Shown: one piece after another, positions 5,886 to 50,348 of the stretch
Layout: each line of letters opens with the position of its first letter
How positions within the stretch are numbered: position 1 is the stretch's first letter
Source of the DNA: Parcubacteria group bacterium Gr01-1014_13
GTDB lineage: Bacteria; Patescibacteriota; Patescibacteriia; Magasanikbacterales; GWA2-37-8
DNA length: 64,000 nt
Direction of reading: 5' to 3'
Assembly: GCA_007376295.1 (NCBI GenBank)
Contig: VMGB01000003.1
Coordinates: 7,106-71,105 of the forward strand
The notes under the pieces: model-generated
The model's database searches: none
What the model saw: only the letters and a program-made list of their open reading frames with translations
What the model was told of the DNA's origin: nothing
Position numbers and translations under genes: made by a program

Positions 5886-6341
5886 GTGGCCAAACGCGAT
5901 AAAAAGCGACGCCGGCGCAAACCTCCGGCCAAAAAATCTCAATCAGCTCTGCCTACCAAAGGCAACCATCATGATCTGCTAGAAATTTTTAATGCCATAA
6001 ACCTTTGGTATTTTGATGGCAAAATCAAAGCCAGGATTAGTTGGGGTCGCAGAGTCCCCTTTCCTCCGCGCTACCACAAGACAATGAGTATGGCGCACTG
6101 CCATGTTGAAAATCGTTTGATAATTATCAGCCGTTCTCTCGACCGGTCTTCGGTGCCACGTTTAATCGTGGAATATACGGTATTTCACGAAATACTGCAC
6201 CTGAAATTTCCCCCGCGAATAAAAAACGGCCGTCATAATTTTCATTACAAAGAATTCTGCGACGCGGAAAAACAATTTGCCAACTATGCCGAGGCCGAAG
6301 AATGGGAGAAAAATCACAATTATCTCCTACATTTTTTCTAA
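5886..6341 (+). CDS. YgjP/DUF45-like (SprT-like) metal-dependent hydrolase
   Basis: WG..., HEILHL (HExxH) and downstream HNFHYKEF match the DUF45 arrangement WGSC...HExxHL..NHS..FW. Basic N-terminal tail. Confidence 0.5.
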   Translation: MAKRDKKRRRRKPPAKKSQSALPTKGNHHDLLEIFNAINLWYFDGKIKARISWGRRVPFPPRYHKTMSMAHCHVENRLIIISRSLDRSSVPRLIVEYTVFHEILHLKFPPRIKNGRHNFHYKEFCDAEKQFANYAEAEEWEKNHNYLLHFF

Positions 6342-6447
6342 AATATTGCCCCCTCCGTAAATACGGAACGGGGGTATTTTTTTAAATATTTGCATTTTCC
6401 CTTAAGCGATGATAGTATTTCCCCAAACCCAACAGGGAGATAATCTA

Positions 6448-7326
6448 ATGGAAAATCTAGAAAAAGAAGTCATCCAACCATCGTTGGGTGATAAAGTAGG
6501 CAACTTCCTTGGATTTGTCGGTATCCATGTGGCCTGTATTTTTGCCATTTGGACCGGTGTCACTTGGCGTTCTCTGGTAATCGCTTTTGTGCTGTACTGG
6601 ACACGCATGTTCCTGATTACCGGCGGCTACCACCGCTACTTTGCTCATCGCTCTTACAAAACCTCGCGCGCATTTCAGTTTGTGCTCGCTTTCTTAGGCA
6701 CAACTGCTATGCAAAAAGGTACGATTTGGTGGTCGGCCAGACATCGCATCCACCACAAACATTCCGACGAGCCGGAAGATATTCACTCGCCGAAAGTGTA
6801 CGGCTTCTGGCAGGCGCATATATGGTGGTTCTTGGGAAATAAGCACGGAAGCGGTATCACTGATTTAAGCCGAGTAAAAGACCTGGTAAAATACCCTGAA
6901 CTACGCTGGCTCGATAAATACCATTGGGTAGCGCCAATCATGCTTACCGGCCTATGCTACTACTTGGATGGGTGGACAGGCCTGATCGTCGGCCTAGCCT
7001 GGTCTACCGTGATATTTTGGCACTGTACATTTTTGGTCAATTCTATTGCCCACATCTGGGGTAGTAGGCGCTACCAAACCAAAGATGATAGCCGAAATAA
7101 CTGGTTTATCGCTCTGCTCACTATGGGCGAAGGATGGCATAACAACCATCATCACCGTCAAGGTTATGCCAGACAGGGCGTTAAATGGTGGGAAATTGAT
7201 ACCACTTATTACATCCTGCGACTGCTCGCTCTGTTTCGTCTAATCCGGGACTTAAATCCCGTATCTAAAAATAAACTGAAAAGTGATCCGGTCGAAGAAA
7301 CGGCCGTAGAACTTACAGCTCCTTAA
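6448..7326 (+). CDS. Acyl-CoA (delta-9-like) fatty-acid desaturase, membrane-bound
   Basis: Three histidine boxes are present: HRYFAH, HRIHHKH, HNNHHH. TM helices. Start chosen at the ATG preceded by GGAGA. Confidence 0.8.
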   Translation: MENLEKEVIQPSLGDKVGNFLGFVGIHVACIFAIWTGVTWRSLVIAFVLYWTRMFLITGGYHRYFAHRSYKTSRAFQFVLAFLGTTAMQKGTIWWSARHRIHHKHSDEPEDIHSPKVYGFWQAHIWWFLGNKHGSGITDLSRVKDLVKYPELRWLDKYHWVAPIMLTGLCYYLDGWTGLIVGLAWSTVIFWHCTFLVNSIAHIWGSRRYQTKDDSRNNWFIALLTMGEGWHNNHHHRQGYARQGVKWWEIDTTYYILRLLALFRLIRDLNPVSKNKLKSDPVEETAVELTAP

Positions 7327-7334
7327 ACAAAAAG

Positions 7335-7368
7335 GCGGGCGATCCAACGGATCGCTCTATTTTTTTAT
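7335..7368 (+). terminator. Rho-independent terminator (GCGATCC-AAC-GGATCGC + T7)
   Basis: Perfect 7-bp stem followed by a T-run, directly after the desaturase stop. Confidence 0.7.
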
Positions 7369-7437
7369 TTAAATTTAACATTGTGCTACCAGGCAATTTT
7401 TGGTATACTTAAATTAATTTAACAGAATATTAATTCT

Positions 7438-7890
7438 ATGTTTAGAACAAAATTAGAAAAAAATAAAAGCCGGGTTGACCGCTTTGCTGATTTCTTAAGA
7501 AGCTATTTTGGCACTGTCTGGTTTCTTGCGATAAATGCCATTGTTTTTCTTGGATGGCTATTACTTAATTCTGGATTAATTCCAAACTTTCCAATCTTCG
7601 ATCCCTATCCGCATGGTTTTTTGACTACCGCTGTTTCTCTTGAGGCCATATTTCTTAGCGTTATTGTTCTTATCAGTCAAAATCGAGCTAACCAAATTGA
7701 TGAACTAAGAGAAGAAATCGATTTACAAATTAATATCAAAGCTGAACACGAGATTACCAGAATAATAAATATGCTCGATGAAATTCATGATCATTTAGGA
7801 CTCGCTTCGGATGATGATGCGGAATTAGCAGAGATGAAACAAAAAACAAATATAAGTGACATCCAAAACCAATTAATGCGACATAAGTGA
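7438..7890 (+). CDS. DUF1003-like small membrane protein
   Basis: Two TM helices followed by a charged coiled tail (EEIDLQINIKAEHEI...). Resembles the DUF1003 family by memory. Confidence 0.4.
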   Translation: MFRTKLEKNKSRVDRFADFLRSYFGTVWFLAINAIVFLGWLLLNSGLIPNFPIFDPYPHGFLTTAVSLEAIFLSVIVLISQNRANQIDELREEIDLQINIKAEHEITRIINMLDEIHDHLGLASDDDAELAEMKQKTNISDIQNQLMRHK

Positions 7891-8100
7891 GGTTCATAAA
7901 AATTTAATAAAAAAGAGAGACCTTGCCGAAGCTTGGTCTCATGTAGGGTTGGGTAGAGAGAAAGTGGGTTGAGGTTTGGTTGCAGGTTTGAAGCTGCTAC
8001 GTTTACCATCGAACTTAGTTCTCTGATATTTCTATCGTATACCCTACAATAAACTGGGTCAATAGTTTTTAGCAAAAGTTATCCACAGAGCAATAAATAC

Positions 8101-8133
8101 AAAAGCCCCCAACCTGGGAGGGCTTTTGATTTT
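8101..8133. terminator. Bidirectional hairpin terminator between convergent genes
   Basis: AAAAGCCCCCAACCTGGGAGGGCTTTTGATTTT. Confidence 0.55.
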
Positions 8134-8145
8134 ATACAATATTTA

Positions 8146-8925
8146 TTAGATACCTACTTCAACTTTAGCACCGGTATCGGCCTTAATCTTGAGATTACTT
8201 GTACTCATCAGCAATTTAATTGTATTATCGGCATTAATTTCCAACTTTTCATCCGTTTTCAATTTAAAGTTATCCCGCATCGTTCCATTTACATCCATGC
8301 CTACTTCGATATTGCTTTCTACATTTCCACCCGTCAATGTCACCATATCATCGGTAGTTATAGTAGCGTTGGCATTTGTGCGAGATTCAATCTTCAGCAC
8401 TGGGGAAAAGATATACTTACCTTTTCCAGTTATGTGCAATGACTCGTCAACAACAAAATCTACTTTAACGCTATTAGTGGTGCCGGAAACAACTGTGAAT
8501 TTACCATTAACTTCTAGGTTGTTTGAAGGTAATTTTGCTTCGACTGTGGAAGTAGATTTGACTACTAAAACTTTTGTAACATGCAAACGAATTTGATTAT
8601 AGGTGTCTTGGGCCACATTTGTATGAGCTGCCAAAGCCAAGGCGGACTTGGCTTTTAGAGCCAACAGGTCAAAAGTTTTGGACTCGTTAGAAACAGTTAT
8701 CCATCCTTGAGTAGCGCTATGCATTTCTATTTTATCGACTGTTAATTGAACAGAGGTAATTCCGTTCATTTGAGCCGCGGCGTCGGTTATGGAAATGATA
8801 ACTTTTCCTTGGGCGGCACTATACGGAGTCGTAGTGGGGTTAGTGTTAACACCAACATTTCCCGTACATCCTGCACCCATTAAAGCAATGGCTGCAGCAA
8901 AGGCCAACAAAATTCCTTTCCTCAT
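8146..8925 (-). CDS. Lipoprotein, DUF4382-like
   Basis: Signal peptide with lipobox LMGAGC. Beta-rich T/S/N-rich mature part. Confidence 0.45.
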   Translation of the reverse strand: MRKGILLAFAAAIALMGAGCTGNVGVNTNPTTTPYSAAQGKVIISITDAAAQMNGITSVQLTVDKIEMHSATQGWITVSNESKTFDLLALKAKSALALAAHTNVAQDTYNQIRLHVTKVLVVKSTSTVEAKLPSNNLEVNGKFTVVSGTTNSVKVDFVVDESLHITGKGKYIFSPVLKIESRTNANATITTDDMVTLTGGNVESNIEVGMDVNGTMRDNFKLKTDEKLEINADNTIKLLMSTSNLKIKADTGAKVEVGI

Positions 8926-9149
8926 ATGCTTTTTAAATTAAATAAATAAAAAACCCTTTTTAAATCCTGCTTTAATCCTACTCTTCTATTTATGAAAATT
9001 TGATGAAGTTTTTGGACTACTTGTCTTTACAGATATTTAAACACTTGTTAGGAATAAAACAGACAAAACTTGGGATGGCCTATGTCACGGCAGTCGATTT
9101 AATAAAGACGGAAGCGTGTTAAATGGCCCGGCAAAAAAACCTTTACGAC

Positions 9150-9464
9150 CTATCCCTTAGATTTATTTCGTTTACTGAGAATCCACTGAACTGATTTGCT
9201 TATTGGTTTGTCTGTGCGGTGAATACAACCGAGCCAGCAACATGGGCGTCGCATACCTTCCTTAAGTTCTGAAACGACCCTACTCACATGCTCTTTCCTC
9301 GTCTCTGGTTTCTTATTGGAAATAGTCCAACAAATCCACTCGTTGCGGGCGAGCGGCGTAATATCTTCCCAGGCCGCTAGTGCTTTACGATCAGAAGTTA
9401 GAGCTTTGCGTAAATCAGGCGGCAGATTATGTACTGCACCTCCGGAGATTTCTATTTTAGACAT
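9150..9464 (-). CDS. YdeI/OmpD-associated (DUF1801-like) family protein
   Basis: Around 100 aa with CWxxxxxKxETR and CCW motifs typical of that family (from memory). Confidence 0.4.
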   Translation of the reverse strand: MSKIEISGGAVHNLPPDLRKALTSDRKALAAWEDITPLARNEWICWTISNKKPETRKEHVSRVVSELKEGMRRPCCWLGCIHRTDKPISKSVQWILSKRNKSKG

Positions 9465-9498
9465 AATGTCTGCTATTAATTTTTTCTACCAAATTTAT

Positions 9499-9927
9499 CT
9501 AATTATTTATTACTTCACCTGTTTTAACAACACCTGGTTCGGCCCGAAAAACTGTTCCATCCTTATTGGTCCGGTAGGCATATTGTTTGCCATCTACTGC
9601 CAAAAGAACACGAAAGCCGGAAACAAGCGCCTCCGTACACATTTCACCACGTTGTTCGAGGCCAAGGCAGCCATTGTTCCACATCTTCTCTGCAACCTCA
9701 AGAATAACAATTTTTTTCTCTTCGACACCAAGCCGCATGGCTAAATCTTTTCGTACTACGAGCGCTGCTGGCTCAATAGGAAGATCTGGGTTTCCGGATT
9801 GTAAATTATCGCCTGGGGTAACCGTATTATTGGTATCATTATTGTTAGACTTAGTGACGACTGTAAATACAACGTAACCTATACCCAATACAACTAATAA
9901 TACGATAAATAAGATTTTAAATTTCAT
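9499..9927 (-). CDS. Hypothetical membrane-anchored secreted protein
   Basis: N-terminal signal anchor, N/T-rich linker, two Cys. No motif recognised. Confidence 0.4.
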   Translation of the reverse strand: MKFKILFIVLLVVLGIGYVVFTVVTKSNNNDTNNTVTPGDNLQSGNPDLPIEPAALVVRKDLAMRLGVEEKKIVILEVAEKMWNNGCLGLEQRGEMCTEALVSGFRVLLAVDGKQYAYRTNKDGTVFRAEPGVVKTGEVINN

Positions 9928-9994
9928 ATAAATTAAATAATTTCTTTATATATATATATTCTATCTTACAACTTTTTAATAAAAAAGCAAATTT

Positions 9995-10025
9995 AAAAAA
10001 ACCTTCCTTAAGAAGGGAATTTAAT
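9995..10025 (-). terminator. Terminator hairpin (CCTTCCTTAAGAAGGG) + T7 on the minus strand, downstream of the LRR gene. It is part of a larger 13-bp inverted repeat TTAAGAAGGGAAT/ATTCCCTTCTTAA.
   Basis: Read directly. Confidence 0.5.
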
Positions 10026-10068
10026 TACTTAGATGCTTGGTAGAGATATTCGAGACAACATTCCCTTC

Positions 10069-10572
10069 TTAATCAGTAATAAAATTAGTCAAGGGTAGTT
10101 CTTTCTTAATCTTTTCTAGATCCTGCCTAGAGTAATTATTGCCCGAAAGATTCATTGTCTTTAATTTTTTTAAATTGCCAAGCTCGTAGGGCAATCCGGT
10201 AAGTTGGTTATTGGAAACATCAAGAATTTCTAAATCCGTAAGCTGGCCCAATTCGGCTGGCAACCCGGTCATTCTGTTATTTTTAAGATTGAGTACTTTT
10301 AATTTTCTAAGCTTTCTTATCTCAGCCGGCAATGCTCCCGTTAAATTATTACCGGATAAATCCAATTCCGTAATGTTTGTATTATCAAAAATTTCCATTG
10401 GGACGCGGTTTAGATTCTTATTGCTAAGATCAACCTTATTTAGATTATTATTCTCAATAATTCTGGCTGGATTAGGAAAGCCTGATTCTTCGGACTTATT
10501 AAGACAACCTGCGCCAATCACAAGTAGCGTCAAAGGGAGTAGTAGGATTAATTTTAATTTCATATAAATCAT
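10069..10572 (-). CDS. Leucine-rich-repeat lipoprotein
   Basis: Lipobox LVIGAGC. Six or more LxxLxLxxNxLxxLPxEIGxL repeats. Confidence 0.7.
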   Translation of the reverse strand: MIYMKLKLILLLPLTLLVIGAGCLNKSEESGFPNPARIIENNNLNKVDLSNKNLNRVPMEIFDNTNITELDLSGNNLTGALPAEIRKLRKLKVLNLKNNRMTGLPAELGQLTDLEILDVSNNQLTGLPYELGNLKKLKTMNLSGNNYSRQDLEKIKKELPLTNFITD

Positions 10573-10796
10573 TTACTTTCTTATTTTTGTACAATACAGC
10601 TATTAAAAAGCAAAGTCAATGTCTATAATATTTCCAATCTAAACCAACAAAAGCGCCGCATGAATTGGGTGGAAAACTTAGATGTGTATATTGACAAAAA
10701 TACCCCTTAATGATAGTATCCTCTGTTCCATCTCTGTTTACTTTTTGTGAAACAAAATTATACAAGGGATGGATCAAACACAACACGGAGGTGTCT

Positions 10797-11474
10797 ATGG
10801 TGAAAATCGTTCTTTTTTCTTTGCTGATTATTTTTCTTGTAATCGTCGCACTCTTCACAGCCTTAATCCTATACGCATATGTTAAGGATAAGACTAAAAA
10901 AAGAAGCGGCCGTACAGAAAATTCAATGTCCGGCACGACTTATAACGCCATTGAGCTGAACGCTGCTATCGAAACGATGCTTGATGAAAAAGCCGATTTA
11001 ACAAAAAGGCTGGAGGGTGCAAAGGTTATAATAAACTATGGCCATTCTCTAAATTCTCAAGGGTTTCTATCGGTAGAAGCTTCATTCAATTCTGGTAAAA
11101 AAGGGCCTCCCACGACCGGCTTCAGTCCAGGACACGGCAATGTAACGATCTCATCTAACTCAAACAAAGATCGCTCTGAGCCGTTCTCCAGCACGACTAA
11201 AGAACGAGTGGGAAAATATAGGATCTGGAAACTAAAAGATGGCATTTTAATGTTTCATGGATTCTGGGCATCAAACACTGTTACGCGCGCAGACAAGTCG
11301 CTTACGCCAGAATATGAACTGAGATACGATACCAAGACACTCGCCCTTATCTCACTCACTTTTAATGAGGTCGATGAAGAGCGCGGCCGTTCGTTCCTTG
11401 GCGTCCTGCAAATTTCCCGAACAAACAGACACCATCTTCTTGGAGAAAAAATGGGCACCGTAGAATATTTATAG
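10797..11474 (+). CDS. Hypothetical membrane-anchored protein
   Basis: Start chosen at the ATG after GGAGGTG. N-terminal TM. Confidence 0.4.
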   Translation: MVKIVLFSLLIIFLVIVALFTALILYAYVKDKTKKRSGRTENSMSGTTYNAIELNAAIETMLDEKADLTKRLEGAKVIINYGHSLNSQGFLSVEASFNSGKKGPPTTGFSPGHGNVTISSNSNKDRSEPFSSTTKERVGKYRIWKLKDGILMFHGFWASNTVTRADKSLTPEYELRYDTKTLALISLTFNEVDEERGRSFLGVLQISRTNRHHLLGEKMGTVEYL

Positions 11475-11533: not shown

Positions 11534-11631
11534 CACCCGAGCCGCTTACACAGCTTAATAAATAATTTGTTACGCTGTGTAAGCTCGGGTGAATAAAAAT
11601 ACTCCGGTTTTTGCCCGGAGTATTTTATTTG
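11534..11631. terminator. Two tandem long hairpins: a 21-bp stem (CACCCGAGCCGCTTACACAGC...) followed by AATACTCCGG-TTTTTGC-CCGGAGTATT. T-runs on both sides.
   Basis: Inverted repeats read directly. Bidirectional terminator pair at the left edge of the putative island. Confidence 0.6.
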
Positions 11632-11704
11632 TAGGGTTAATCGAGACACTTGGCAAACTTTTTAAATTGCCATATACTAATCCTATCTTTGACAATTCAC
11701 TTTA

Positions 11705-11738
11705 GCAGCAGGTTGGGGTTCGAATCCCTTAGGAATCA
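11705..11738 (+). other. tRNA-like fragment (T-arm GGTTCGAATCC) without an acceptor or anticodon partner
   Basis: A canonical T-loop 11-mer is present, but no full cloverleaf can be built. Possible remnant integration (att) site. Confidence 0.3.
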
Positions 11739-11908
11739 ATAATAAAATAAATTTAAATACCACCATCCCTCACTCTTCTACTACTTATAAACAAAATAGT
11801 ATGAAAATAATCAGAATTAAACCCACAACATTATTTAAATTGAAAATTGTTATCATTATGGCAAACCTGCTGGTGACCTGAGTTGTGAAAAACATACTTC
11901 TCCAAAAC

Positions 11909-12520
11909 TTATTCAAACAAGAAAGGCAGCGCAATAATGGTGGTATCGCTGTATAAAATATTTAAATAAATAGTTTGCCCTAAAATTGGTGTTGGACCAA
12001 CTTTGATAGATACTTGCTTTATCCAGCAGCCGGCCTTTATTTGATTGGCCTCTATCTGTTTTATTATTTTTTCTGACTTCTTTCCAGGGTCTTCAGGCAT
12101 TTGCAGAGGGCAATCTCTAAGAATCTCAATGAGTTTCTGAGCAAAATTTCTCCAAAAACTAATATTATCAAAACTATCTGTTTGAATACCAGCACTGCTT
12201 AATAATTTTTTTATTTCCTGTCTCAGTTCTTTAAAAGAGATTACTGCTGAAACCAATGCAATTATCAAATTAGTATTACCGTAATCTTTAGTTGTGACTA
12301 TCAAATCATTAAGTCTTTTTAAAATTTCCAAAGCAGGGGTCCTATCCATATCAGTATGAACAGACCAATTACAAAAAAAATCTAAAAGTTGAAAGTTTTC
12401 AGCCTTAGTTTTATCAATTAACTTTCTCATCAAAACCATTAAGTGAGCTACCTGACTTTCAGTGAGAGTTTTATCAGACGCTATAATTTCCTTAATTTTA
12501 CGGATAATTTCATCCTCCAT
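11909..12520 (-). CDS. Hypothetical protein (203 aa), third gene of the coupled operon
   Basis: ORF lies 12 nt after the 981-aa gene. AT-rich codon usage. Confidence 0.5.
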   Translation of the reverse strand: MEDEIIRKIKEIIASDKTLTESQVAHLMVLMRKLIDKTKAENFQLLDFFCNWSVHTDMDRTPALEILKRLNDLIVTTKDYGNTNLIIALVSAVISFKELRQEIKKLLSSAGIQTDSFDNISFWRNFAQKLIEILRDCPLQMPEDPGKKSEKIIKQIEANQIKAGCWIKQVSIKVGPTPILGQTIYLNILYSDTTIIALPFLFE

Positions 12521-12532
12521 ATCTTTAATGCT

Positions 12533-15478
12533 TTAGTGAACCACTTCTTTCAACTGCCAGAACGTACTACTCCCCTTTTCAATGAGGATGTTTATTAATT
12601 TAACCACTTTTTCCTGAACAACCTTATTACCATTTTTATATATTACACTAAGAGCCTCTTTAATCTGACCATCATACAAAAGCGGCCCTCGATGACGGAA
12701 TGAATTTAATTTATTATCAGAATCAAGCAGATAATACCAAATAACTTCCAAGCATTTTTCTGGATTCTTTTCAGCAAGATAAGGGAGGCGTTTTAACAAA
12801 CCATAATCCCAATCAATGTCGCCACCAGATTTTTTTAGCGTATCGGCCATTTTTTCAACAACTATACTGTCATCTATAATCTCTCTGTCGGGATTAATCC
12901 AAAAACCAAAACCAGAAAATATTCCAGACTCTTTTATATTATCTATAACCCAACTCCAAAAATTAATAAGTTTTTCTTTACTAACATGATTTTCCTCCAA
13001 CCACTTATCACTAGCTACATCTTTAGTTAAACAACTACGACCTATGAAAGACACAAACTCCTGCTGACGAGTTATATTAATTTTTTTCCAAAAAGCGCTG
13101 ATTAAAGGATTATCTATTCCTATATTAAAATGAGCAAAAGCAAGAGCGAGATGAATTGCTAGGGTTTCATCTAAACCTTTCACATACTTCCTTTGTGTAT
13201 ATACTTCAGGGTCTAGTCCGATTGCATATTGATAATAATCTTTAAGCGCTATAAAAAGTTGCTCATATAAAGTACTGGATAAATAACCTTCCCAAGTCGC
13301 AAGATAAATATCTTTTTTAGTACGGTCGTCTTTAGGAAAAATTTCAGGAAATAGACCAGCTATAAACTCCTGATCCCGGAAATGAAATGAGGCTAGATAT
13401 CGGCCTAACATAAAACGAACTGCTAAAGAATTATCCTGAAGAACCTGCTTGTAAAGCAATTTAATATCATCCAACAATACTTTTCCATCATTCTCAACAA
13501 ACACTACAAATGCTTCACAGGCCCTGCCACGGACTGAATTAATAGCTATGTGATATAATTCGCCATATTCTGGTTTCTCATCATCTACTGAAGGACTATC
13601 TTTAATAGTGAAAAGATAAGAAATTAAATCTTTACTTTGTTGTCTATAAATTTCATGGACTTCTTTTCTTGTTTCTTTGCTTTCTAAAGTAAAGAGCAGG
13701 ATATCTGCCACAATAGTGTGTAACCCTACCCAATCTACCAACAAAAATCTATCATCTTTTTTATCTTTATTTTTCCTAAAGGGCTTTAGTTCCCCATCTT
13801 TTCTAATCACATCAAACAAGCTAATGAGCTGGCCTATTTGTTTTAAATTTAACGATTGTTTATTACGCAACATTTCTTCGATACCACGCAAAATAGAATA
13901 TAAATAATGTGGGTGAATAGACTCCCTGCCATAAAACCCTTTTATACTTTCGAGATAATCATTTGGCCGTTTCTTTATATCTTCTCTTAAAGCATCCCCT
14001 AGGCCTTCTACTCCTCGTGGATTTAAGAAGTCATCGTTCTTAAACTCTTCCTCAAATTTTTCTGCAGTCCAATCAGACTTTAATTTAGTAATAATTTTAT
14101 CAATAGTAAAATCAGCAATATTTACCGGAGATGTATGATGTACCCACCCACCTCTTGCTTTACCAACTGTCGGTTCAGGAATATAGTTTGTACTATCAAT
14201 GTCGACATGAAATTTATCTTTTATAACGCTCTTATTCTCTGGTGTCAGCCACTCTTTGATTAAACTAAGAATTTGTTTACCATCACGTTTTCTCCATTTT
14301 TCTACATCCTTATCTTCAAGACTGCCGCCAAAGTAACCAAAGATGCTATTAATATATTTTTGCTGAGTTTCTTTATCAAAGAATTTAAAGCTTCGTTTTA
14401 GTGATTGATGATACTCGGCCCCACCTTCAATTTCAGAATATGTTTCACCAACTTCAAATACCTTAAAGAATGCTTTCTTTAATTCTTCTTTAAAAACATT
14501 AGGACACTGAGATAAGGCAAAGAGTTTCAGCCTCCACATTGAACGAGACGAAGGCAAATTATTGATATACTCAAAAAATCTTCTAGCCGTGCTCTCATTT
14601 TCACAGTTTTTACCAACTGTTCTTTCAACAATTTTTTTAATTGAGGCCGCAAGGTTTTTTATATCCTCTCTAAAGGAAGCGCTTCTCTTACCGCTAAGCT
14701 CTAAAGTAAAAAAATCTACATCATATAAAGTAAATGAGTCGGAATATTCAAATATTTTTGTCTCGTCGTGGTCTGATAGTTTAACCATACTAGCCATTAC
14801 ATCAGTGGTGAGTTGCAAAGATCGCTCAACGTACTCCTCTTCTATATTGGCTAAAGCCTCAAAAATACCAGAGGCATCCAAATCACTTACATAGAAAGGA
14901 TCGTCTTTACTAAAACTATCTTTGGCAGAAACTTCCTCTTTACTTTTAACTAAAAGTAAAGCTTGGGCCAACTCTAACAAGGCCTGGCCTTCTTTTTTTT
15001 CTACTAAACTACTAACAACTTTTTCAAACTCATAACCAGTCTTACGGAAGGCACGCATTAAATAAATCCACCTCTCATCTCTCACTTTTGATGTAAGAGA
15101 TTTTATCTGCTCTGCTGGGAGGATGTATAAAATCCAAAAAAACCTATCAATAACCTCCGGGTTAAAATTTTCTTCGCTAATTTCCACTGATTTAATAACT
15201 TGAGCAACTCCATCAGGATCTTTTGCGGCAATTCGAGCCAAATACTCGAGCTCCGGCATTGTATAAAAAATCTGAGTAGTATTAACAGCTCTTTTCTTTA
15301 AACCATTAAAAAACCCTTCTTTCCAAAACCACTTGATCCAGAATTCATCAGCCATTGAAAAAAAGAATCTTTTAGCATCCTCATTTAACAAAAGATCCTG
15401 CCCAACTTTAACATTAGCAGATTCTAATCCTGCTTTAAAAAACGCCTCTATTTTATTATGTAATTCAAGCTGGTTCAT
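12533..15478 (-). CDS. Large hypothetical all-alpha protein (981 aa). No P-loop or known catalytic motif.
   Basis: Long clean ORF. Its ATG overlaps the upstream stop codon (ATGA at 15475-15478). Confidence 0.6.
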   Translation of the reverse strand: MNQLELHNKIEAFFKAGLESANVKVGQDLLLNEDAKRFFFSMADEFWIKWFWKEGFFNGLKKRAVNTTQIFYTMPELEYLARIAAKDPDGVAQVIKSVEISEENFNPEVIDRFFWILYILPAEQIKSLTSKVRDERWIYLMRAFRKTGYEFEKVVSSLVEKKEGQALLELAQALLLVKSKEEVSAKDSFSKDDPFYVSDLDASGIFEALANIEEEYVERSLQLTTDVMASMVKLSDHDETKIFEYSDSFTLYDVDFFTLELSGKRSASFREDIKNLAASIKKIVERTVGKNCENESTARRFFEYINNLPSSRSMWRLKLFALSQCPNVFKEELKKAFFKVFEVGETYSEIEGGAEYHQSLKRSFKFFDKETQQKYINSIFGYFGGSLEDKDVEKWRKRDGKQILSLIKEWLTPENKSVIKDKFHVDIDSTNYIPEPTVGKARGGWVHHTSPVNIADFTIDKIITKLKSDWTAEKFEEEFKNDDFLNPRGVEGLGDALREDIKKRPNDYLESIKGFYGRESIHPHYLYSILRGIEEMLRNKQSLNLKQIGQLISLFDVIRKDGELKPFRKNKDKKDDRFLLVDWVGLHTIVADILLFTLESKETRKEVHEIYRQQSKDLISYLFTIKDSPSVDDEKPEYGELYHIAINSVRGRACEAFVVFVENDGKVLLDDIKLLYKQVLQDNSLAVRFMLGRYLASFHFRDQEFIAGLFPEIFPKDDRTKKDIYLATWEGYLSSTLYEQLFIALKDYYQYAIGLDPEVYTQRKYVKGLDETLAIHLALAFAHFNIGIDNPLISAFWKKINITRQQEFVSFIGRSCLTKDVASDKWLEENHVSKEKLINFWSWVIDNIKESGIFSGFGFWINPDREIIDDSIVVEKMADTLKKSGGDIDWDYGLLKRLPYLAEKNPEKCLEVIWYYLLDSDNKLNSFRHRGPLLYDGQIKEALSVIYKNGNKVVQEKVVKLINILIEKGSSTFWQLKEVVH

Positions 15479-16290
15479 ACACTAGGAATATTCTCAATAA
15501 TCTTTTTCATGTCAATAAAAAAACTTCCAAACACCCTCTTGAAGCTTTCGACGCTTAGGCATTTCTCATTTTCACATGTCGGATCTTCAAGCTGTCTAAA
15601 TCCGTTTGTAATTGCCGCTTGCTGATGGTGTGTAACACCGGTAAAAAATTGATAGTATTTTTTAATTTTAGAACATGATAATTCTATTGTTTCAAAAAGC
15701 TCTACTGTTATTGCGCCTTTTTTAAAAAGATCTTTCAATGTTTTACCGAAATCATCTTCGTTGGCAGAAAATATTGAAAGCATTTCTCGAATAGAGGAGG
15801 CTGCATGCTCTCTCCACTCCTCATTATAATTTTCAGACCCAAATGCAAATACTGCCCCACGTAAATGACGGCGGTGGTCATTTGTCACACCTTTCGCTGG
15901 ATAGCTCTCTGGACGTAATCCATCCAACTTTAATCTAGATAAGTTATAAACTAAAAGACTTATTTTATTTATATCTTCTTCTGATATCCCCAACTGTTTG
16001 AATCCAACCTCATAAAAATTAACTATTTTTTCCTGCACTTCATTTCCTTCTAACAAATCATTGGAATTACCAATGCCAGGAGAACTAAAGTAATAGTTAA
16101 CAATTTTATCTCTACCAACGTTTTCACCAGACGATCCAGCAACATAAGAATTTTGTTCTTTTTTAGAAAAACGAAAAATAACCTTGCTGATCAACTCTTT
16201 ACCGCCAAATAAAGCAAGGATGGCTAGTAAAATCTTTAAAATCGTATCTATTACATCAGACATAATTCTGGTTAGGGTCGTTGAAACCAC
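15475..16290 (-). CDS. Hypothetical protein with a single N-terminal TM helix (271 aa), first gene of the operon
   Basis: IDTILKILLAILALFGG TM segment. Stop overlaps the next start. Confidence 0.5.
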   Translation of the reverse strand: MVSTTLTRIMSDVIDTILKILLAILALFGGKELISKVIFRFSKKEQNSYVAGSSGENVGRDKIVNYYFSSPGIGNSNDLLEGNEVQEKIVNFYEVGFKQLGISEEDINKISLLVYNLSRLKLDGLRPESYPAKGVTNDHRRHLRGAVFAFGSENYNEEWREHAASSIREMLSIFSANEDDFGKTLKDLFKKGAITVELFETIELSCSKIKKYYQFFTGVTHHQQAAITNGFRQLEDPTCENEKCLSVESFKRVFGSFFIDMKKIIENIPSV

Positions 16291-16398
16291 CGGGCAATAG
16301 TGAATATGGTCGCTAGACTACTGATTATATTTATAACTAATTGATTCATAGTTACTTAAGCTTAACTTAACCATAAAATATCTGCAAGCAAATTAAAA

Positions 16399-16433
16399 CA
16401 CCCACCAAAGCCGAAGCTAAGATGGGTGCGTGG
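16399..16433 (-). terminator. Hairpin (CACCCATC...GATGGGTG) + TTTTAATTT on the minus strand after the peptidase gene
   Basis: Read directly. Confidence 0.5.
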
Positions 16434-16450
16434 TCTAATATAAAAAATTA

Positions 16451-18634
16451 TTAGTAAGCAAAGAACAAATGAGCGTCAACCTGTTGAAAACTACCGCTTC
16501 CAATCTTTAGGAAGAAAAGCAGTTCCCAGTTTCCTGGCCCGGGGTTTGCAAATTCTGGGAAAAACCAGGACTCACCATTACTCGCTGGCAAATATGGACC
16601 AAAGTCCCAACTCCACCCAAGCGTACCGCTGTGATACGCCTCGATGCGGAACTGGACGTTGGTATTGACGGCGAGCCCGGTAAAGCGCAACCGCCAGTAG
16701 TAAGTGCTAAGCGACGAAAGCGAGCTTTGGCTAGACACTGGCGTCCAACACTGCGGCACTCCGTTTGCATCACGTTCGTTTTGATAATTACCGAGACAAA
16801 CATTGAACGAGCTGGAGGTGTAACCTCCAATGGGCGCGTTCACCGTAAAGGTAATATCCGACCGAAGCATTTGCCAACCGCCGCCGACATCGATTTCCAC
16901 CGATGCTCGCCAATTACCGCTAAGCGCATACCATAGGGTCGGCCAAGTATAAGCCGTACTCCAGACTTGTCCAGATGGTACAGTGGTCCAATCACTTACT
17001 TGTTCGGAGTAAACCGTCGAGGAACCATTGCGGTAAAACCGCGAACGGAACCTATACGACTGCCGAACATCCTGCACAAAGGACAACACACGAACGTTCT
17101 GCCCTTGCGAGAACACCGTTGCTGGTCTGGGGCAGGTATAGATCCAGTTGGTACTTTGTCCACCAGTAGGCTCATTGGAACATGTTACCGCGTTGCCATT
17201 GTAGATGAAAGGTGCTACTGGATTTACCGTAAACGGAATGATGGCTACATTTACATTCTCGAATTCCGTTCCACCGGGCAAATCAATATCTACCCGAGCT
17301 TCATAGGAACCAGAGATAACATTTCCAATTGTTGTCCAGTAATGCGCGTATTGCCAAGTCTCACCAGTTGGAACGTCGTTCCATCCAGTAGGACTGGTGG
17401 TATACAAAAAGGAACCATTGTGAAAAATCCGCGCGCGGAACCGATGTGAACTGGTCACATTGTCGATTCGCATCAGTACGGTTACGTTATCGCCTGCGGC
17501 ATAAGAACTCTGCTGGCCGTTACAGGTGTAAATCCAGTTCGTACTGGCTCCACCGGTGACAGAACCATTACAGTTGTAGTTGTTGCCATTGTACTGATAT
17601 GGCGAACCTGGCCATTGCTGACTACCTCCTGGGACAATGAAATGAAACGTGGTCAGCTGGAAAGGCCCGCTGCCAGTATTCGCGTAAATTCGCATATCCC
17701 AGTCACCAGCATAGACGTTGTTGAATCTGGGCAAATAGAACGCATGTGGCCACACATTCGGCTCCACCTGCAACGCACTATCTGTCCATGTCCAATCAGG
17801 TGATGACTGTCCGAGACGCCACGCTTCAATGCTGAAGGCGACATTCCTTTGGACATTGTCGACTCTGATGACCATGTTGGCATTCTGTCCAGGCTGAAAA
17901 ACAGTCTGACGATTCTGGCAACTGTAGATCCAGTTTGTGCTTTCTCCGCCAGTTACCGCATCGGTACAACCATAGACGTTATTGCTGTCTAGATTGAACT
18001 GAAACGAACCTTGCCAAGCGGGAACGCCTGGGATAGAAAGGTTTGAGTTCGCGGCGTATGACGGTGCCAATTCGAAATGGATGTGATCCACGTGCGGGAT
18101 TGGACCAGAGTAGATAGCCACCCTGCTAGCACTTGGACCAGAGGTGGTATATTGGGTTTTGTCCCAAACAAGAAACTGAACACCCAATGTTCCAGCATTA
18201 CTGATCAACCAGTTCGCAATTGGGTCACCAACACTGTTGTCCGCAGCGCCATTATCCATTGGGATATGAATATCCAATGCCCAACCAACACCATGGGTGG
18301 ATGTTTGCGATAGATTGGCTGTATTTGGCCTACACCAATACGTTTCGATTCTGGAGATACCAGAAAAAGCTCCCTTAACGTATTCAGCCAACTTAGTAGT
18401 GCCTGGAAGGAGGCCGCCACTACAACTTGATCCGTCGGCCGCCCATGCAGGCGGAACCATCATGTTGATTGTGACTCCTGCGGCCGCATTGAGAGCATCC
18501 GACGAAGGCGCGTAGTTGCCGGAGATGGCAACTGATTGCTCCACACTTTCCTCCCTATCCTTGCGATCATCGCTAGCGCAAGCCGCTACAATGAACGCTA
18601 CAATGAGAAGAGCTGCTTGTATTGATCTCGACAT
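16451..18634 (-). CDS. Lipoprotein M15/LAS-family zinc peptidase (peptidoglycan hydrolase-like) with three C-terminal repeats of about 110 aa
   Basis: Lipobox IVAAC. STHGVGWALD (H-x6-D) and VDHIHFE (HxH) zinc-ligand motifs. Three repeats each contain C-x3-TGG-x-STNWIY-[ST]-C. The gene has much higher GC than its flanks. Start chosen at the second ATG, which has a purine-rich RBS. Confidence 0.6.
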   Translation of the reverse strand: MSRSIQAALLIVAFIVAACASDDRKDREESVEQSVAISGNYAPSSDALNAAAGVTINMMVPPAWAADGSSCSGGLLPGTTKLAEYVKGAFSGISRIETYWCRPNTANLSQTSTHGVGWALDIHIPMDNGAADNSVGDPIANWLISNAGTLGVQFLVWDKTQYTTSGPSASRVAIYSGPIPHVDHIHFELAPSYAANSNLSIPGVPAWQGSFQFNLDSNNVYGCTDAVTGGESTNWIYSCQNRQTVFQPGQNANMVIRVDNVQRNVAFSIEAWRLGQSSPDWTWTDSALQVEPNVWPHAFYLPRFNNVYAGDWDMRIYANTGSGPFQLTTFHFIVPGGSQQWPGSPYQYNGNNYNCNGSVTGGASTNWIYTCNGQQSSYAAGDNVTVLMRIDNVTSSHRFRARIFHNGSFLYTTSPTGWNDVPTGETWQYAHYWTTIGNVISGSYEARVDIDLPGGTEFENVNVAIIPFTVNPVAPFIYNGNAVTCSNEPTGGQSTNWIYTCPRPATVFSQGQNVRVLSFVQDVRQSYRFRSRFYRNGSSTVYSEQVSDWTTVPSGQVWSTAYTWPTLWYALSGNWRASVEIDVGGGWQMLRSDITFTVNAPIGGYTSSSFNVCLGNYQNERDANGVPQCWTPVSSQSSLSSLSTYYWRLRFTGLAVNTNVQFRIEAYHSGTLGWSWDFGPYLPASNGESWFFPEFANPGPGNWELLFFLKIGSGSFQQVDAHLFFAY

Positions 18635-18729
18635 TTTTTCCCTTTTTCCTTTTCTACGCACCATGCGTGCCTAGATGATATACAATAAAAAAAGAACCGT
18701 CAATGTTGCTTGACAGCTCTTTTTTTAAT

Positions 18730-19293
18730 TTAAATATTTCGAGTAACAACAAGGTTGTGAATATCTTTTGAAAAATCCACCTGATACTCACAAAGGTTTT
18801 TCATAGCATGCACTTGCCCTGAACAGGTAATAATCAACTTTCCTTCTCGAAGGAAAGTTTTACCTAAAATCTCTAACTCAAACGCATCAATCTCTGTATC
18901 ATATACGCTGACCGGAGTACCGGCTAGTTTTGATTCTGCCACCTGTAAAAAAATGCGTCCAGCAGAACGTGTTGGAGACTCTTCCCCTCCACCTACTCTA
19001 TATATGCGGTATGATAAACCATTCTCTTTATCTACAACATCTTTAACCTCGTAAACATATGCGAGTGTTATCTTTCCCCTTGCGTTCTTAATAGGTAAAA
19101 TAGTTCTATTTTCACCAACTGCGTATATATTAGCTGTTTCAAATAGAGAATCCAAATTCAAGCCATCGTCCTCTTCTTTTACCACGTCATTTTTTGTATT
19201 GTCTTTAGGTGCTTCTCCGTACTTAATTCCTACAAAAAAACTGCCGACAATTAATATAGCTGCAAGCCCTACCAATAATAATTTTTTAGTCAT
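18730..19293 (-). CDS. Hypothetical membrane-anchored protein
   Basis: N-terminal TM. No motif recognised. Confidence 0.4.
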   Translation of the reverse strand: MTKKLLLVGLAAILIVGSFFVGIKYGEAPKDNTKNDVVKEEDDGLNLDSLFETANIYAVGENRTILPIKNARGKITLAYVYEVKDVVDKENGLSYRIYRVGGGEESPTRSAGRIFLQVAESKLAGTPVSVYDTEIDAFELEILGKTFLREGKLIITCSGQVHAMKNLCEYQVDFSKDIHNLVVTRNI

Positions 19294-19313
19294 AATAAAT
19301 AATTAATTTATTG

Positions 19314-19385
19314 TAGCCCCAACGGGAATCGAACCCGTATTTTATCCGTGAAAGGGATATGTCCTAACCATTAGACGATGAGGCC
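19314..19385 (-). tRNA. tRNA-Glu (anticodon TTC)
   Basis: A cloverleaf was built by hand. Acceptor GGCCTCA/TGGGGCT (with G-U pairs). D-arm GTCT/GGAC. Anticodon loop CTTTCAC. T-arm ACGGG-TTCGATT-CCCGT. No encoded CCA. Confidence 0.8.
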
Positions 19386-19501
19386 GTATATTTCCAATGA
19401 CTGATATTCTAATGTATTTTGGCTTAAAAGTCAATGTCTGTTGACACAAGCTGCCGTTTTAAGGGTATCATACAGATAACATATTCAAACGGAGTAATAC
19501 T

Positions 19502-19927
19502 ATGGAAAATACCGGAAGAAAGACAGCTGCTCTTTTAATTGTTATCTCTGCTTTGTATCTAGCCGTGTTTGATTGGGAATGGCCATCAATCACCCATCTC
19601 AAATTTAGCTGGCCCTATACGATCGGAATTGCAGTGGCTGTGCTTTTTTGTATGGCCGAAAGATTTCTAAAACACGCCAATACACCTGATTTTCAGTGGA
19701 AAAAATTGTTCAAAACCCATTTTTTCGCTTTCTTGATCTTTTGCCCCATTTCGATAATTGTGATTTTACCGAAACTAGGTCCAGCAAATGATATCTGGAG
19801 CACCGATTACAGAATTGCTTTTTTGATCACCTTCTTTTTCATTACTGTCGGACCAAAGATCGGCACTATTTCCGAAAGACTGGAAAGCTTGCTCACTCCC
19901 AAAAATGGTAAAAAGACGGGGGTATAA
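19502..19927 (+). CDS. Hypothetical polytopic membrane protein
   Basis: Four TM helices. Confidence 0.4.
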   Translation: MENTGRKTAALLIVISALYLAVFDWEWPSITHLKFSWPYTIGIAVAVLFCMAERFLKHANTPDFQWKKLFKTHFFAFLIFCPISIIVILPKLGPANDIWSTDYRIAFLITFFFITVGPKIGTISERLESLLTPKNGKKTGV

Positions 19928-20033: not shown

Positions 20034-20107
20034 GTCAGGGTAGCTCAGTTGGTGAGAGCACGGGATTCATAACCCCGAGGTCGAGAGTTCGACTCTCTCC
20101 CCTGACA
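20034..20107 (+). tRNA. tRNA with CAT anticodon (elongator Met or Ile2/lysidine)
   Basis: Acceptor GTCAGGG/CCCTGAC. D-arm GCTC/GAGC. Anticodon loop TTCATAA. T-arm GAGAG-TTCGACT-CTCTC. No encoded CCA. Confidence 0.8.
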
Positions 20108-20110
20108 CAT

Positions 20111-50183: not shown

Positions 50184-50310
50184 TCTCCTTCTGGACTGAA
50201 AGCCCAAAAAGCATTTTGCCCCTGCCCGGGACCTAGGTCTTCTCTCATGAGAAGAACGTATACATATACTCGTTATTTTAAATTCTGTCAAGAAACACAC
50301 CAAAAACAAA

Positions 50311-50348
50311 ACATCCCCAGACATTATGTCTAAGGGATGTTTTTTATA
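50311..50348 (-). terminator. rpsA terminator hairpin + T-run
   Basis: CATCCCCAGACAT..ATGTCTAAGGGATG with T-runs. Confidence 0.55.

Follow-up and report, generated by a model that had tools for sequence, protein, structure and literature searches.

A conserved gene pair encoding a small helical protein and a predicted HEAT/ARM-type solenoid, candidate core of an undescribed conflict module beside tRNA-Glu

The variable region beside tRNA-Glu in the 64-kb window (the whole stretch of DNA analysed here, from an ultra-small bacterium of the CPR/Patescibacteria) carries two translationally coupled genes, A and B, and this pair, not the triplet A-B-C, is the invariant core of the module. We lean slightly towards reading it as an undescribed conflict module of the defence type, in which an NTPase-free sensor scaffold would be combined with swappable effectors. 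None of A, B and C has a match in Pfam, NCBIfam, PADLOC, PHROG or the PDB, in line with the initial annotation, which could assign the module to no named system. The region comprises the following features:

11534-11591 and 11596-11626, both strands: two consecutive strong hairpins, a bidirectional terminator at the left edge of the variable block
11632-11659, minus strand: promoter-like repeat TTGCCA-N17-TACAAA, located some 250 nt past C203 and oriented into the terminators
11909-12520, minus strand: C203, a 203-aa orphan 12 nt after B, in the variable downstream slot
12533-15478, minus strand: B, 981 aa, predicted alpha-solenoid of the HEAT/ARM type and conserved core of the module
15475-16263 (ORF to 16290), minus strand: A, small helical partner of B, 262 aa (271 aa for the full ORF)
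16313-16388, minus strand: conserved 76-nt stretch upstream of A
16398-16429, minus strand: GC-rich hairpin followed by a T-run, terminator-like (ViennaRNA dG -20.5)
16451-18664, minus strand: gene for a 737-aa protein, GC 0.499 (z +2.4)
18730-19293, minus strand: gene for a protein of 187 aa with a hydrophobic segment at its N-terminus, cargo of the island adjoining tRNA-Glu
19313-19385, minus strand: tRNA-Glu(UUC), found by ARAGORN and Rfam (65 bits), right boundary of the variable region

Although A, B and C had initially been described as one three-gene operon, conservation is confined to the A-B pair; of the three families, A and B occur strictly together and are often fused, but C203 does not accompany them. 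Both proposed junctions, the ATGA overlap of A stop and B start at 15475-15478 and the 12-nt gap between B and C, are present. In 33 of the 40 loci that contain the 5′ end of B, the A domain either immediately precedes B or is joined to its N-terminus in one protein, and nowhere else in these 40 loci is an A domain found. A profile search with the A domain among 1.84 billion representatives gave 173 matches, and all 33 matches of at least 400 aa have B straight after the A domain. In three loci (L008, L021 and L031) a CHAT protease, overlapping the start of B, takes the place of A; split, fused and CHAT states are intermixed on the B tree. The closest relative, L051, shares 79% nucleotide and 77% amino acid identity with B of the window, and this homology ends exactly at the B start and stop codons: C is replaced, and the L051 A protein shares with that of the window only the motif W-[RK]-EH-x-A-x2-[IL]-RE. 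Ahead of A lies a 76-nt stretch that probably serves as promoter or leader for A-B-C transcription; it is 87% identical to positions 9101-9176 of L051, even though the two A genes downstream of it defy alignment.

The gene in the slot downstream of B is unrelated in every locus, both mutually and to C203. For C203, two homologues were found among 5.8 billion proteins, with no family or PDB match and no recognisable catalytic motif. The only distant homologue with readable context, P0123, sits in a different defence island beside a PLD-SNF2 helicase and an MmeI-type RM enzyme, with A and B absent and a distant paralogue two genes away. Counting genes of at least 100 aa, the first one downstream of B shares its strand in 35 of 43 loci; in 14 of the 43 it is within 15 nt of B or overlaps its stop codon; five of these 14 genes encode different nuclease-type domains. 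The domains of the slot include HEPN, DpnI-like, SNase, Schlafen-AlbA_2, NYN, PD-(D/E)XK, RNase H, Mrr and MazG, and some of the genes are housekeeping (ExoVII, NrdR-type, Mur ligase, UvrD). Since 19 of the 35 same-strand genes are more than 40 nt away and some are housekeeping, the downstream genes may be mere island neighbours. It is possible, though we find it doubtful, that the unit is A-B only and that C203 and the downstream nucleases are independent single-gene residents of islands that landed beside B. Such independence would agree with the wide spacing and several housekeeping genes, the lack of a common family among the downstream genes, the occurrence of P0123 without A or B, and the end of the window-L051 homology at the B stop codon. 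It fits less well with the 14 close or overlapping genes and their nuclease-type members, with the 12-nt gap in the window, where neither the B-C junction nor C203 holds a predicted terminator-like hairpin, and with the low GC common to C203 and B. C203 is probably co-transcribed with A-B.

As had been anticipated, relatives of the module occur in defence-island or mobile-element settings. The 138 neighbour proteins two genes further out include N6_N4 methylases (12), ResIII (8) and serine recombinases (6), together with Eco57I/MmeI, PLD-SNF2, DpnII and Fic, unlike a control set of 136 genes from CPR TsaD loci, whose top families are all housekeeping. Because A-B is found in other genomes among restriction enzymes and recombinases, with a different and often nuclease-type gene downstream each time, it most likely forms the core of an immune-type system not yet described. 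That A-B instead serves a mobile element, by addiction/stabilisation or inter-element exclusion, we regard as unlikely. Serine recombinases, AAA_25 and ParB_N are indeed found near some B loci (in L051, serine recombinases and an AAA_25 gene lie between tRNA-Glu and the A-B pair), distant relatives occur between IS elements on conjugative plasmids of Legionella and also on plasmids of haloarchaea, and the window and L051 share an island-specific promoter-like repeat. This TTGCCA-N17-TACAAA motif has one copy in the window (none expected by chance) and four in the L051 island, each between gene cassettes; it occurs in none of 50 other loci. However, no recombinase or replication gene lies near the window copy of A-B, many B loci are on long chromosomal contigs beside RM genes and without element hallmarks, and B was not found in the phage collections IMG/VR and INPHARED. 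Moreover, defence genes themselves often ride on mobile elements, so that a mobile-element context does not discriminate between the two readings.

The model of B (pLDDT 88.7) is a full-length, karyopherin-sized HEAT/ARM alpha-solenoid with a predicted number of about 20 repeats, which bears out its earlier description as all-alpha. Likewise, neither a P-loop nor an HExxH motif was found in B, nor in A or C. Mean column identity among B proteins is 55%, with about 120 invariant columns, which is unusually high for an immune sensor. This conservation, at the level of a housekeeping enzyme, could suggest that B is a cellular scaffold of the CPR lineage (e.g. for envelope, division or episymbiosis), with A as membrane anchor and the island location incidental; the fold class, shared with scaffolds and transport receptors of eukaryotes, and the membrane-type helix in A of the window would also fit. 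We nevertheless consider a cellular scaffold quite improbable, given the patchy spread of B (47 loci among 185,579 species representatives), its AT-shifted composition, the other genes that the closest TsaD relative carries in the 2.4 kb left of tRNA-Glu, the RM, recombinase and nuclease neighbours, which differ from the control set, the restriction of the membrane helix to a minority of A proteins and the CHAT protease in A's place at some loci. At 9-13% identity, the resemblance of B to HEAT solenoids of the karyopherin, CAND1 and SF3B1 type is generic to solenoids and lends no support to common descent or a shared transport function.

A contact-dependent or secreted polymorphic-toxin system, with the downstream nucleases as exported toxins and B as chaperone or adaptor, is very improbable, for although nuclease domains downstream of B vary, the SNase plus Excalibur protein downstream of B in L017 looks extracellular, a secreted wall-hydrolase-like protein is encoded next door in the window and CPR bacteria are episymbionts, the neighbourhoods showed neither secretion-system genes nor toxin-delivery domains (LXG, RHS or PT-type) nor a pattern of immunity genes, inspection found no signal peptide in B or C203, and the downstream nucleases are stand-alone, without trafficking domains.

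At its N-terminus protein A has a hydrophobic helix (about 16201-16251), which a disordered linker connects to a conserved helical bundle, the C-terminal domain (about 15487-16023). The model of A has a pLDDT of 75 overall and above 90 in this domain. The initial annotation had presented it as a single-TM protein of 271 aa. The hydrophobic helix is there in the window copy, but the true start is most likely the ATG at 16263 (262 aa), because this is where all homologues and the NCBI record start. Nor does the proposed role of TM sensor hold for the family, since the membrane helix is confined to a minority subfamily. Across 178 sequences, the conserved residues are G145, N156, W159, S166, R168 (98%), E169, Y213, H221 (94%) and H222.

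On the reading that we prefer, a defence-type conflict module, B would be a protein-binding sensor or scaffold, and A would work at its N-terminus, whether encoded separately with translational coupling, as in the window, or fused to it. With its conserved N/R/E/Y/H/H constellation, A could serve as a nuclease-like effector or as a switch, and in the subfamily of the window its membrane-type helix would anchor the complex. Upstream of B, the slot appears refillable, by split A, fused A or a CHAT protease, and in distant archaeal relatives by a P-loop STAND-like NTPase; the downstream slot would be refilled even more freely, often by stand-alone nucleases and here by C203. We infer that B keeps the effector module(s) inactive until an invader-derived ligand binds the solenoid, upon which effectors would be released or activated, leading to cleavage of nucleic acids or proteins and to an outcome like abortive infection. 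Weighing against this reading are the lack of a match to known defence families, the strong conservation of B, the missing catalytic motif of C203 and its occurrence away from B, the wide spacing and partly housekeeping nature of the downstream genes, and the absence of an integrase and an att repeat from the window.

Avs-type receptors, which are STAND/NLR-like, combine an N-terminal effector, a central P-loop NTPase and a C-terminal helical-repeat sensor. A-B resembles them in its large helical-repeat arm, in having N-terminal modules that can be exchanged (nuclease-like or protease) and in its defence-island context. The likeness extends to an 'ATP-binding protein' of a haloarchaeal plasmid, in which a P-loop STAND-like N-terminus (Walker A GEPGVGKT, LICLDDVH and GGHPYYL; the STAND call rests on motifs read by eye and the RefSeq label) precedes a solenoid homologous to B (hhalign probability 98.4). 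In contrast, A and B of the window contain no NTPase domain, and hence no nucleotide-driven oligomerisation switch, their effector candidates are separate genes, and B has no sequence or family match to Avs, NACHT or NB-ARC models. TPR-CHAT (Csx29) belongs to the type III-E CRISPR 'Craspase'. The three B loci in which a caspase-like CHAT protease is translationally coupled to a helical-repeat protein resemble it, as they do other conflict proteins that pair CHAT with helical repeats, and here too the helical array would regulate the protease; however, the window has A instead of CHAT, the repeats of B are HEAT-like and not TPR, the protease is a separate polypeptide, and B neighbourhoods showed neither cas genes nor CRISPR arrays. 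PF18165 (pP_pnuc_1, 'predicted pPIWI-associating nuclease'), an alpha-helical domain of conflict systems whose nuclease function is only predicted, matches the divergent fused A-B protein P0207 at a borderline 26.6 bits (cut-off 26.3), over 32 of 133 profile positions and across the most conserved A motif. Another protein, P0197, reaches 16.5 bits; the 271-aa A itself has no match, and no pAgo/PIWI gene was seen near B. A precedent for the solenoid sensing proposed for B is the C-terminal domain of DSR2 (defence-associated sirtuin 2), an immune protein of about 1000 aa that lacks an NTPase; this alpha-solenoid domain makes direct contact with a phage structural protein and governs the effector attached to it (PMC11850899, PMC11263360). 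By description only, A-B may also be compared with ldgA and ddgA ('Dallas'), anti-phage genes obtained by experimental selection and reported to be almost exclusive to Patescibacteria and of no known homology, which a supplementary legend of the preprint describes as single-gene defences and its main text, for Dallas, as a 'more complex' system (bioRxiv 10.1101/2025.02.28.640651).

The DNA left of tRNA-Glu is indeed a variable accessory region. On the right, tRNA-Met, TsaD, DnaE and the genes beyond are syntenic in relatives, which also keep the arrangement of tRNA-Glu beside tRNA-Met and TsaD; on the left, gene content is distinct in each of three close relatives. The window holds no integrase, no att repeat and no repeat of tRNA-Glu of at least 11 nt elsewhere, so that the 'island' is a variable hotspot and not demonstrably an integrated element. 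A tRNA-like T-arm fragment that had been noted at 11716-11728 (plus strand) is a 12/13 match to a generic T-loop, lies on the wrong strand for an att repeat of tRNA-Glu, and was discarded as att site. The suggested mosaic composition stands insofar as A, B and C are AT-shifted and the 737-aa gene GC-rich, but the shift is moderate. Compared with the 41 other genes of the window (mean GC 0.407, sd 0.039), A, B and C have a GC of 0.32-0.35 (z -1.6 to -2.2) and a GC3 of 0.27-0.28 (z about -1.7), and comparable extremes occur at 60989-61717 (GC 0.320) and 49566-50324 (GC 0.503). Tetranucleotide distance has a first peak at 12001-15000 (z 2.3) and its window maximum at 16501-19500 (z 3.8). A hotspot assembled from at least three independently acquired pieces explains the region best.

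The 737-aa gene lies outside the A-B module and forms a mosaic piece of its own within the island; it is parted from the A-B-C unit by the terminator-like hairpin at 16398-16429 and is missing from this site in the relatives L051 and L053. The neighbouring 187-aa protein gave no match in family searches and has no homologue at this site in relatives. The label 'peptidase' once given to the 737-aa product is not sustained by its weak matches (Pfam Extensin-like_C, E 0.031; a PHROG tape-measure segment, E 9.5e-7; PDB, E 0.0026). The product is predicted to be a secreted protein or lipoprotein of about four repeated modules, and its putative LAS-type peptidase-like N-domain is weakly supported; an H-x6-D / H-x-H pattern was read by eye. 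At the opposite edge, the two strong hairpins previously annotated as a double terminator lie between the convergent gene at 10710-11474 (plus strand) and the A-B-C module, and fold with dG of -50.5 kcal/mol on the plus and -47.6 kcal/mol on the minus strand.

In the block left of tRNA-Glu, three genes lie one after another on the minus strand: A, which encodes a small helical protein, B, which encodes a 981-aa HEAT/ARM-type α-solenoid, and C203, which encodes a protein of 203 aa. The open reading frames named in the initial annotation are all found in place, all on the minus strand, as are the stop-start overlap (ATGA) of A and B, the 12 nt that separate the B stop from the C203 start and the strong double hairpin at the left edge:

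11534-11626, two strong hairpins at the left end of the block
11909-12520, minus strand, open reading frame of C203
12533-15478, minus strand, open reading frame of B
15475-16290, minus strand, open reading frame of A as first read
16398-16429, GC-rich hairpin and T-run between the 737-aa gene and A
16451-18664, minus strand, open reading frame of 737 aa
18730-19293, minus strand, open reading frame of 187 aa
19313-19385, minus strand, tRNA-Glu
20034-20108, plus strand, tRNA-Met, then TsaD and DnaE

A is an open reading frame as first read, but it probably has a later start: all homologues and the NCBI record begin at ATG 16263, which is thus the most likely start and yields a protein of 262 aa. 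B, C203 and A are 100% identical to G01um101413_700, _699 and _701 of Parcubacteria group bacterium Gr01-1014_13. A search for known RNA families within 9-22 kb returned none beyond the two tRNAs.

We compared 47 B loci from GTDB species representatives, 40 of which include the 5' end of B. In 33 of these 40, the A domain either immediately precedes B or is fused to its N-terminus, and it is absent elsewhere in those loci; a split A usually overlaps the start of B, and a fused A forms an N-terminal extension of roughly 180 aa. Searched against 1.84 billion representative proteins, a profile of A gave 173 matches, either small stand-alone proteins or the N-termini of long ones, and in all 33 matches that reach 400 aa or more, B comes straight after the A domain. 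In the B tree, the split and the fused state interchange between sister sequences. Judged from gene order and fusion, A and B are a strict Rosetta-stone pair. A diverges much faster than B: between the window and L051, the closest relative with B, the B proteins are 77% identical and the A proteins share only the motif W-[RK]-EH-x-A-x2-[IL]-RE. In three loci (L008, L021 and L031), a CHAT caspase-like protein stands in for A and overlaps the B start, and in another three an unrecognised protein (213-263 aa) does likewise. The long forms of B (1150-1197 aa) are not B-C fusions, as their extension is N-terminal and homologous to A. C203, for its part, has two homologues among 5.8 billion proteins. 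One of them (P0123) has a PLD-SNF2 helicase and an MmeI-type enzyme as neighbours and a distant paralogue two genes off, with neither A nor B present; hence, C203 fills a variable slot locally and is no conserved partner. Of the coupled three-gene operon originally proposed, the A-B pair is conserved but the triad is not, and the unit is a pair with a swappable third gene.

In 35 of 43 loci, the first gene of 100 aa or more after B lies on the same strand as B, and such same-strand genes are at most 40 nt from B in 16 loci and at most 15 nt in 14. These downstream genes are mutually unrelated, except in near-duplicate loci. Those with Pfam domains are mostly nucleic-acid-targeting (HEPN_Cthe2314, DpnI-like, SNase with Excalibur, Schlafen AlbA_2, NYN, PD-(D/E)XK, RNase H, Mrr with Zn-ribbon, MazG-like), the L051 gene has a weak RiboL-PSP HEPN match, and the remainder are housekeeping genes (ExoVII, NrdR-type, Mur ligase, UvrD) or unknown. 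A recognisable HEPN nuclease stands at L010, NYN at L038, and PD-(D/E)XK at L031, one of the loci with CHAT. Among 138 genes two positions further out around B, we found N6_N4 methylases (12), ResIII (8) and large serine recombinases (6), together with Eco57I/MmeI, PLD-SNF2, DpnII, Schlafen helicases, Fic and HNH. By comparison, the top 25 families among 136 random genes from 22 CPR TsaD loci are all housekeeping.

None of A, B and C203 has a significant match in Pfam, NCBIfam, PADLOC, PHROGs or, by sequence and profile searches, the PDB, so that the module fits no named system, as the initial annotation had held. The best matches in PADLOC-DB v2 (2023), BrxHI for B (E 0.0023, 14.5 bits) and Cmr5 for C203 (E 0.0084), are not significant, and a motif search confirmed that all three proteins lack a P-loop and an HExxH motif. 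Full-length homologues of B number more than 200, with 46-77% identity for the best 120; all are unannotated, and nearly all stem from CPR metagenome bins. B is absent from the viral collections IMG/VR and INPHARED. Its alignment contains about 120 invariant columns, with clusters such as N647-S648-R650-G651 and W729-E730-G731-Y732, and its confident AlphaFold model (pLDDT 88.7) bears out the reading of B as all-alpha, with a HEAT-type solenoid over the full length. Over 178 family members, the A domain conserves G145, N156, W159, S166, R168 (98%), E169, Y213, H221 (94%) and H222; its fold matches are weak only, and R, H, E and Y are among the conserved residues. P0207, a divergent fused relative, matches Pfam PF18165 ('predicted pPIWI-associating nuclease') across the conserved A motif at 26.6 bits (cut-off 26.3), a second family member falls below the cut-off, and A271, the window protein as first read, has no match at E ≤ 0.1. 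The relation to PF18165 suggested by these profile scores is thus a lead and not an assignment. Neither A nor C203 shows the HEPN catalytic motif Rx4-6H in a four-helix bundle, and no catalytic signature was found in C203.

The surroundings of the pair are variable on one side. The right side is backbone: many relatives share the synteny of tRNA-Met, TsaD, DnaE and the three genes after them. On the left, content differs between the window, L051 and L053. Left of tRNA-Glu, the window carries the 187-aa and 737-aa genes and then A, B and C203. L051 (TsaD about 75-80% identical) carries genes of 177 and 475 aa, two serine recombinases, AAA_25 and small ORFs; after these come a different A, then B, a gene of 368 aa, PadR and more. 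L053 (TsaD 93%) carries a YdeI/OmdA gene and a 439-aa gene. Nucleotide homology between the window and L051 comprises exactly the B ORF (79% over 2949 nt), 76 nt upstream of A (87%), and the tRNAs and TsaD; A and C203 have been replaced. The 737-aa gene is absent at this site in relatives.

Composition deviates as well, to a moderate degree, as would be looked for in a tRNA-integrated genomic island. A, B and C203 have a GC content of 0.32-0.35 (z -1.6 to -2.2 against the 41 other window genes, mean 0.407, sd 0.039) and a GC3 of 0.27-0.28, and the 737-aa gene has a GC content of 0.499 (z +2.4). There are two peaks in tetranucleotide distance, one at 12001-15000 (z 2.3) and one, the maximum of the whole window, at 16501-19500 (z 3.8). 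Two window genes outside the block are equally extreme. The compositional mosaic first described is thus real, but its size by GC, GC3 and tetranucleotide distance is only moderate. The accessory island beside tRNA-Glu holds as to variable content and deviant composition, but not as to the marks of integration: no integrase or recombinase gene lies between 11.5 and 19.4 kb of the window, there is no direct repeat of the tRNA-Glu 3' end, and no tRNA-Glu repeat of at least 11 nt occurs elsewhere in the window. The T-arm fragment first noted at the left edge of the island (11716-11728) agrees with a generic T-loop at 12 of 13 positions, lies on the wrong strand and is the att site of neither tRNA-Glu nor tRNA-Met. 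Since both integrase and 3'-end repeat are lacking, the region is a variable hotspot built from several pieces rather than a single element whose integration could be demonstrated.

Two distant relatives of B extend beyond CPR. The 789-aa Legionella pneumophila protein WP_070322551.1 (L133, 6212-8581), located between IS3 and IS256 copies and found on conjugative Legionella plasmids, aligns with B residues 445-974 (hhalign probability 98.7, E 2e-16). In the 1391-aa haloarchaeal 'ATP-binding protein' WP_007143110.1 of Halobiforma lacisalsi (L134, 2851-7026, plasmid pHLAJ5I), residues 469-1205 align with B from residue 33 over 685 columns (hhalign probability 98.4, E 4.9e-15); a transposase adjoins the gene and a restriction endonuclease lies near. 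Its N-terminus contains GEPGVGKT, LICLDDVH and GGHPYYL, motifs that we read by eye as those of a putative STAND-type NTPase; this segment, too, has no PDB match in sequence and profile searches. This P-loop protein has a solenoid homologous to B. At its N-terminus, the solenoid can thus bear any of three heads: A, a protease of CHAT type or a P-loop NTPase.

Several known systems resemble A-B. B has in common with STAND/NLR-like (Avs-type) receptors a C-terminal repeat array, but their central P-loop NTPase is missing: A, B and C203 have neither a Walker A motif nor an NTPase match in Pfam, NCBIfam or PADLOC. For their N-terminal effector domain (nuclease, protease, TIR, SIR2 and similar), the A domain, which CHAT replaces in three loci, is a possible candidate. 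The operation that we propose for A-B resembles that of NLR/Avs receptors and also that of DSR2, whose α-solenoid C-terminal domain binds a phage tail-tube protein (PMC11850899). The N-terminal SIR2 NADase domain of DSR2 has no match here in Pfam or PADLOC, and we found no sequence or close structural relationship between its solenoid and B. Because NTPase and SIR2 domains were searched for and are absent, A-B lies outside both families. A TPR-CHAT/Craspase system does not fit the window, where A, B and C203 contain no CHAT domain; CHAT occurs only in the three loci where it replaces A. The 'ARMADA' defence system is DISARM-like and unrelated despite its name. A 2026 domain-centric defence screen (PMC13069673) mentions no HEAT, armadillo or Patescibacteria systems. 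A 2025 preprint (bioRxiv 10.1101/2025.02.28.640651) describes ldgA and ddgA, two anti-phage genes that are restricted to Patescibacteria and have an unknown fold; set beside their published description only, A-B may or may not coincide with them.

With this in mind, the most economical reading of A-B is a conflict or defence module, whose activation, ligand and effector chemistry we infer. Solenoid B would act as a ligand-binding sensor or scaffold and the flanking modules would provide the output. Behind the solenoid comes a slot rich in nucleases, and RM genes and recombinases surround the module as a whole. The defence reading calls for caution, because the conservation of B is housekeeping-like and C203 has no catalytic signature. 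Altogether, the initial annotation was largely correct in what it observed and partly so in what it concluded: an undescribed defence-like module is borne out, a conserved triad is not. A-B is genuinely undescribed and defence-like, and would belong to a general type already known, the sensor scaffold with plug-in effectors. We tentatively suggest, with the balance of expectation somewhat against it, that A-B may represent a new NTPase-free NLR-like receptor lineage centred on CPR/Patescibacteria, with direct sensing by the solenoid and plug-in effectors, and an intermediate or derivative of STAND receptors. Under such a mechanism, a HEAT solenoid the size of a karyopherin would itself recognise an invader protein and control plug-in effectors through A as dedicated N-terminal adaptor or effector domain, which could be exchanged for a CHAT protease or, in archaeal relatives, a STAND NTPase; the hot-swappable nuclease slot downstream would offer a second route of control. 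As evolutionary intermediate or derivative of STAND receptors, it would work without a nucleotide switch.

CPR/Patescibacteria genomes are tiny; to our knowledge, very few of their defence systems and almost none of their phages are known. A-B would be new at the level of a conserved family, marked by its strict Rosetta-stone partner (A), by protease or NTPase heads as alternatives on B and by a nuclease slot that each lineage fills anew. As a defence system, it would add an NTPase-free sensor architecture to prokaryotic immunity, tie this architecture by solenoid homology to STAND-type receptors on archaeal plasmids, and offer a defined and compact target of 4.4 kb for heterologous work. If it is not, the housekeeping-level conservation of a 981-residue HEAT solenoid in reduced genomes still calls for an explanation.

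Some further observations concern the region and its relatives. The 76 nt upstream of A (16313-16388, minus strand) are conserved in L051 though the A genes that follow cannot be aligned, and by this pattern may be a conserved promoter or leader ahead of a swapped gene. A promoter-like 28-mer, AGTTTGCCANNTGTCTCGATTAACCCTA (TTGCCA-N17-TACAAA), has a single window copy (11632-11659, minus strand) that faces the terminators with no gene behind it; L051 has four plus-strand copies (14170, 17037, 19894 and 20410), each ahead of a new cassette and with a conserved leader (about 45 nt) behind it, and 50 other loci have none. The 28-mer looks like a repeated island-specific promoter or operator, and the window copy may mark a lost cassette. 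In L070, a more distant relative, the distance between RNase Y and tRNA-Glu is about 0.5 kb, versus 14 kb in the window; hence, the variable region may extend well left of the boundary first drawn. Between RNase Y (3796-5337) and the three-gene run, genes at 5886-11474 encode SprT-like, fatty-acid desaturase, DUF1003, DUF4382/bactofilin-like, leucine-rich-repeat and 254-aa membrane proteins. The leucine-rich-repeat protein (10069-10572, minus strand, 167 aa, LRR_8 E 1.5e-17), just left of the island, resembles Xanthomonas XopAC/XopL-type and internalin repeats and is unusual in a reduced CPR genome. Between tRNA-Glu and tRNA-Met, a 141-aa multi-pass hydrophobic ORF (19502-19927, plus strand) is conserved in the closest relatives (55-87% identity) and therefore belongs to the backbone.

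The product of the GC-rich (0.50) 737-aa gene is predicted to be secreted or a lipoprotein. The N-terminal domain shows the pattern H-x6-D ... H-x-H, matches a segment of a phage tape-measure PHROG (E 9.5e-7) and, weakly, Extensin-like_C, and is followed by about four repeated modules of roughly 110 aa; the protein is possibly a cell-wall hydrolase of an episymbiont. At L048 (7028-10243, JGI Ga0265297_10000189), a C203 homologue is among four small genes in a row without annotation (315, 204, 238 and 193 aa), which immediately precede a PLD-SNF2 helicase and an MmeI-type RM enzyme; the protein of 193 aa is distantly paralogous to C203 (E 7.9e-6), and the row is possibly another uncharacterised island module. 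Taxon labels of metagenome-assembled genomes proved unreliable: several B loci are labelled 'Gammaproteobacteria' or 'Methanosarcinales' by automated binning, and identical A-B-NYN loci (L038 and L039) appear under Candidatus Azambacteria and Flavobacteriaceae.
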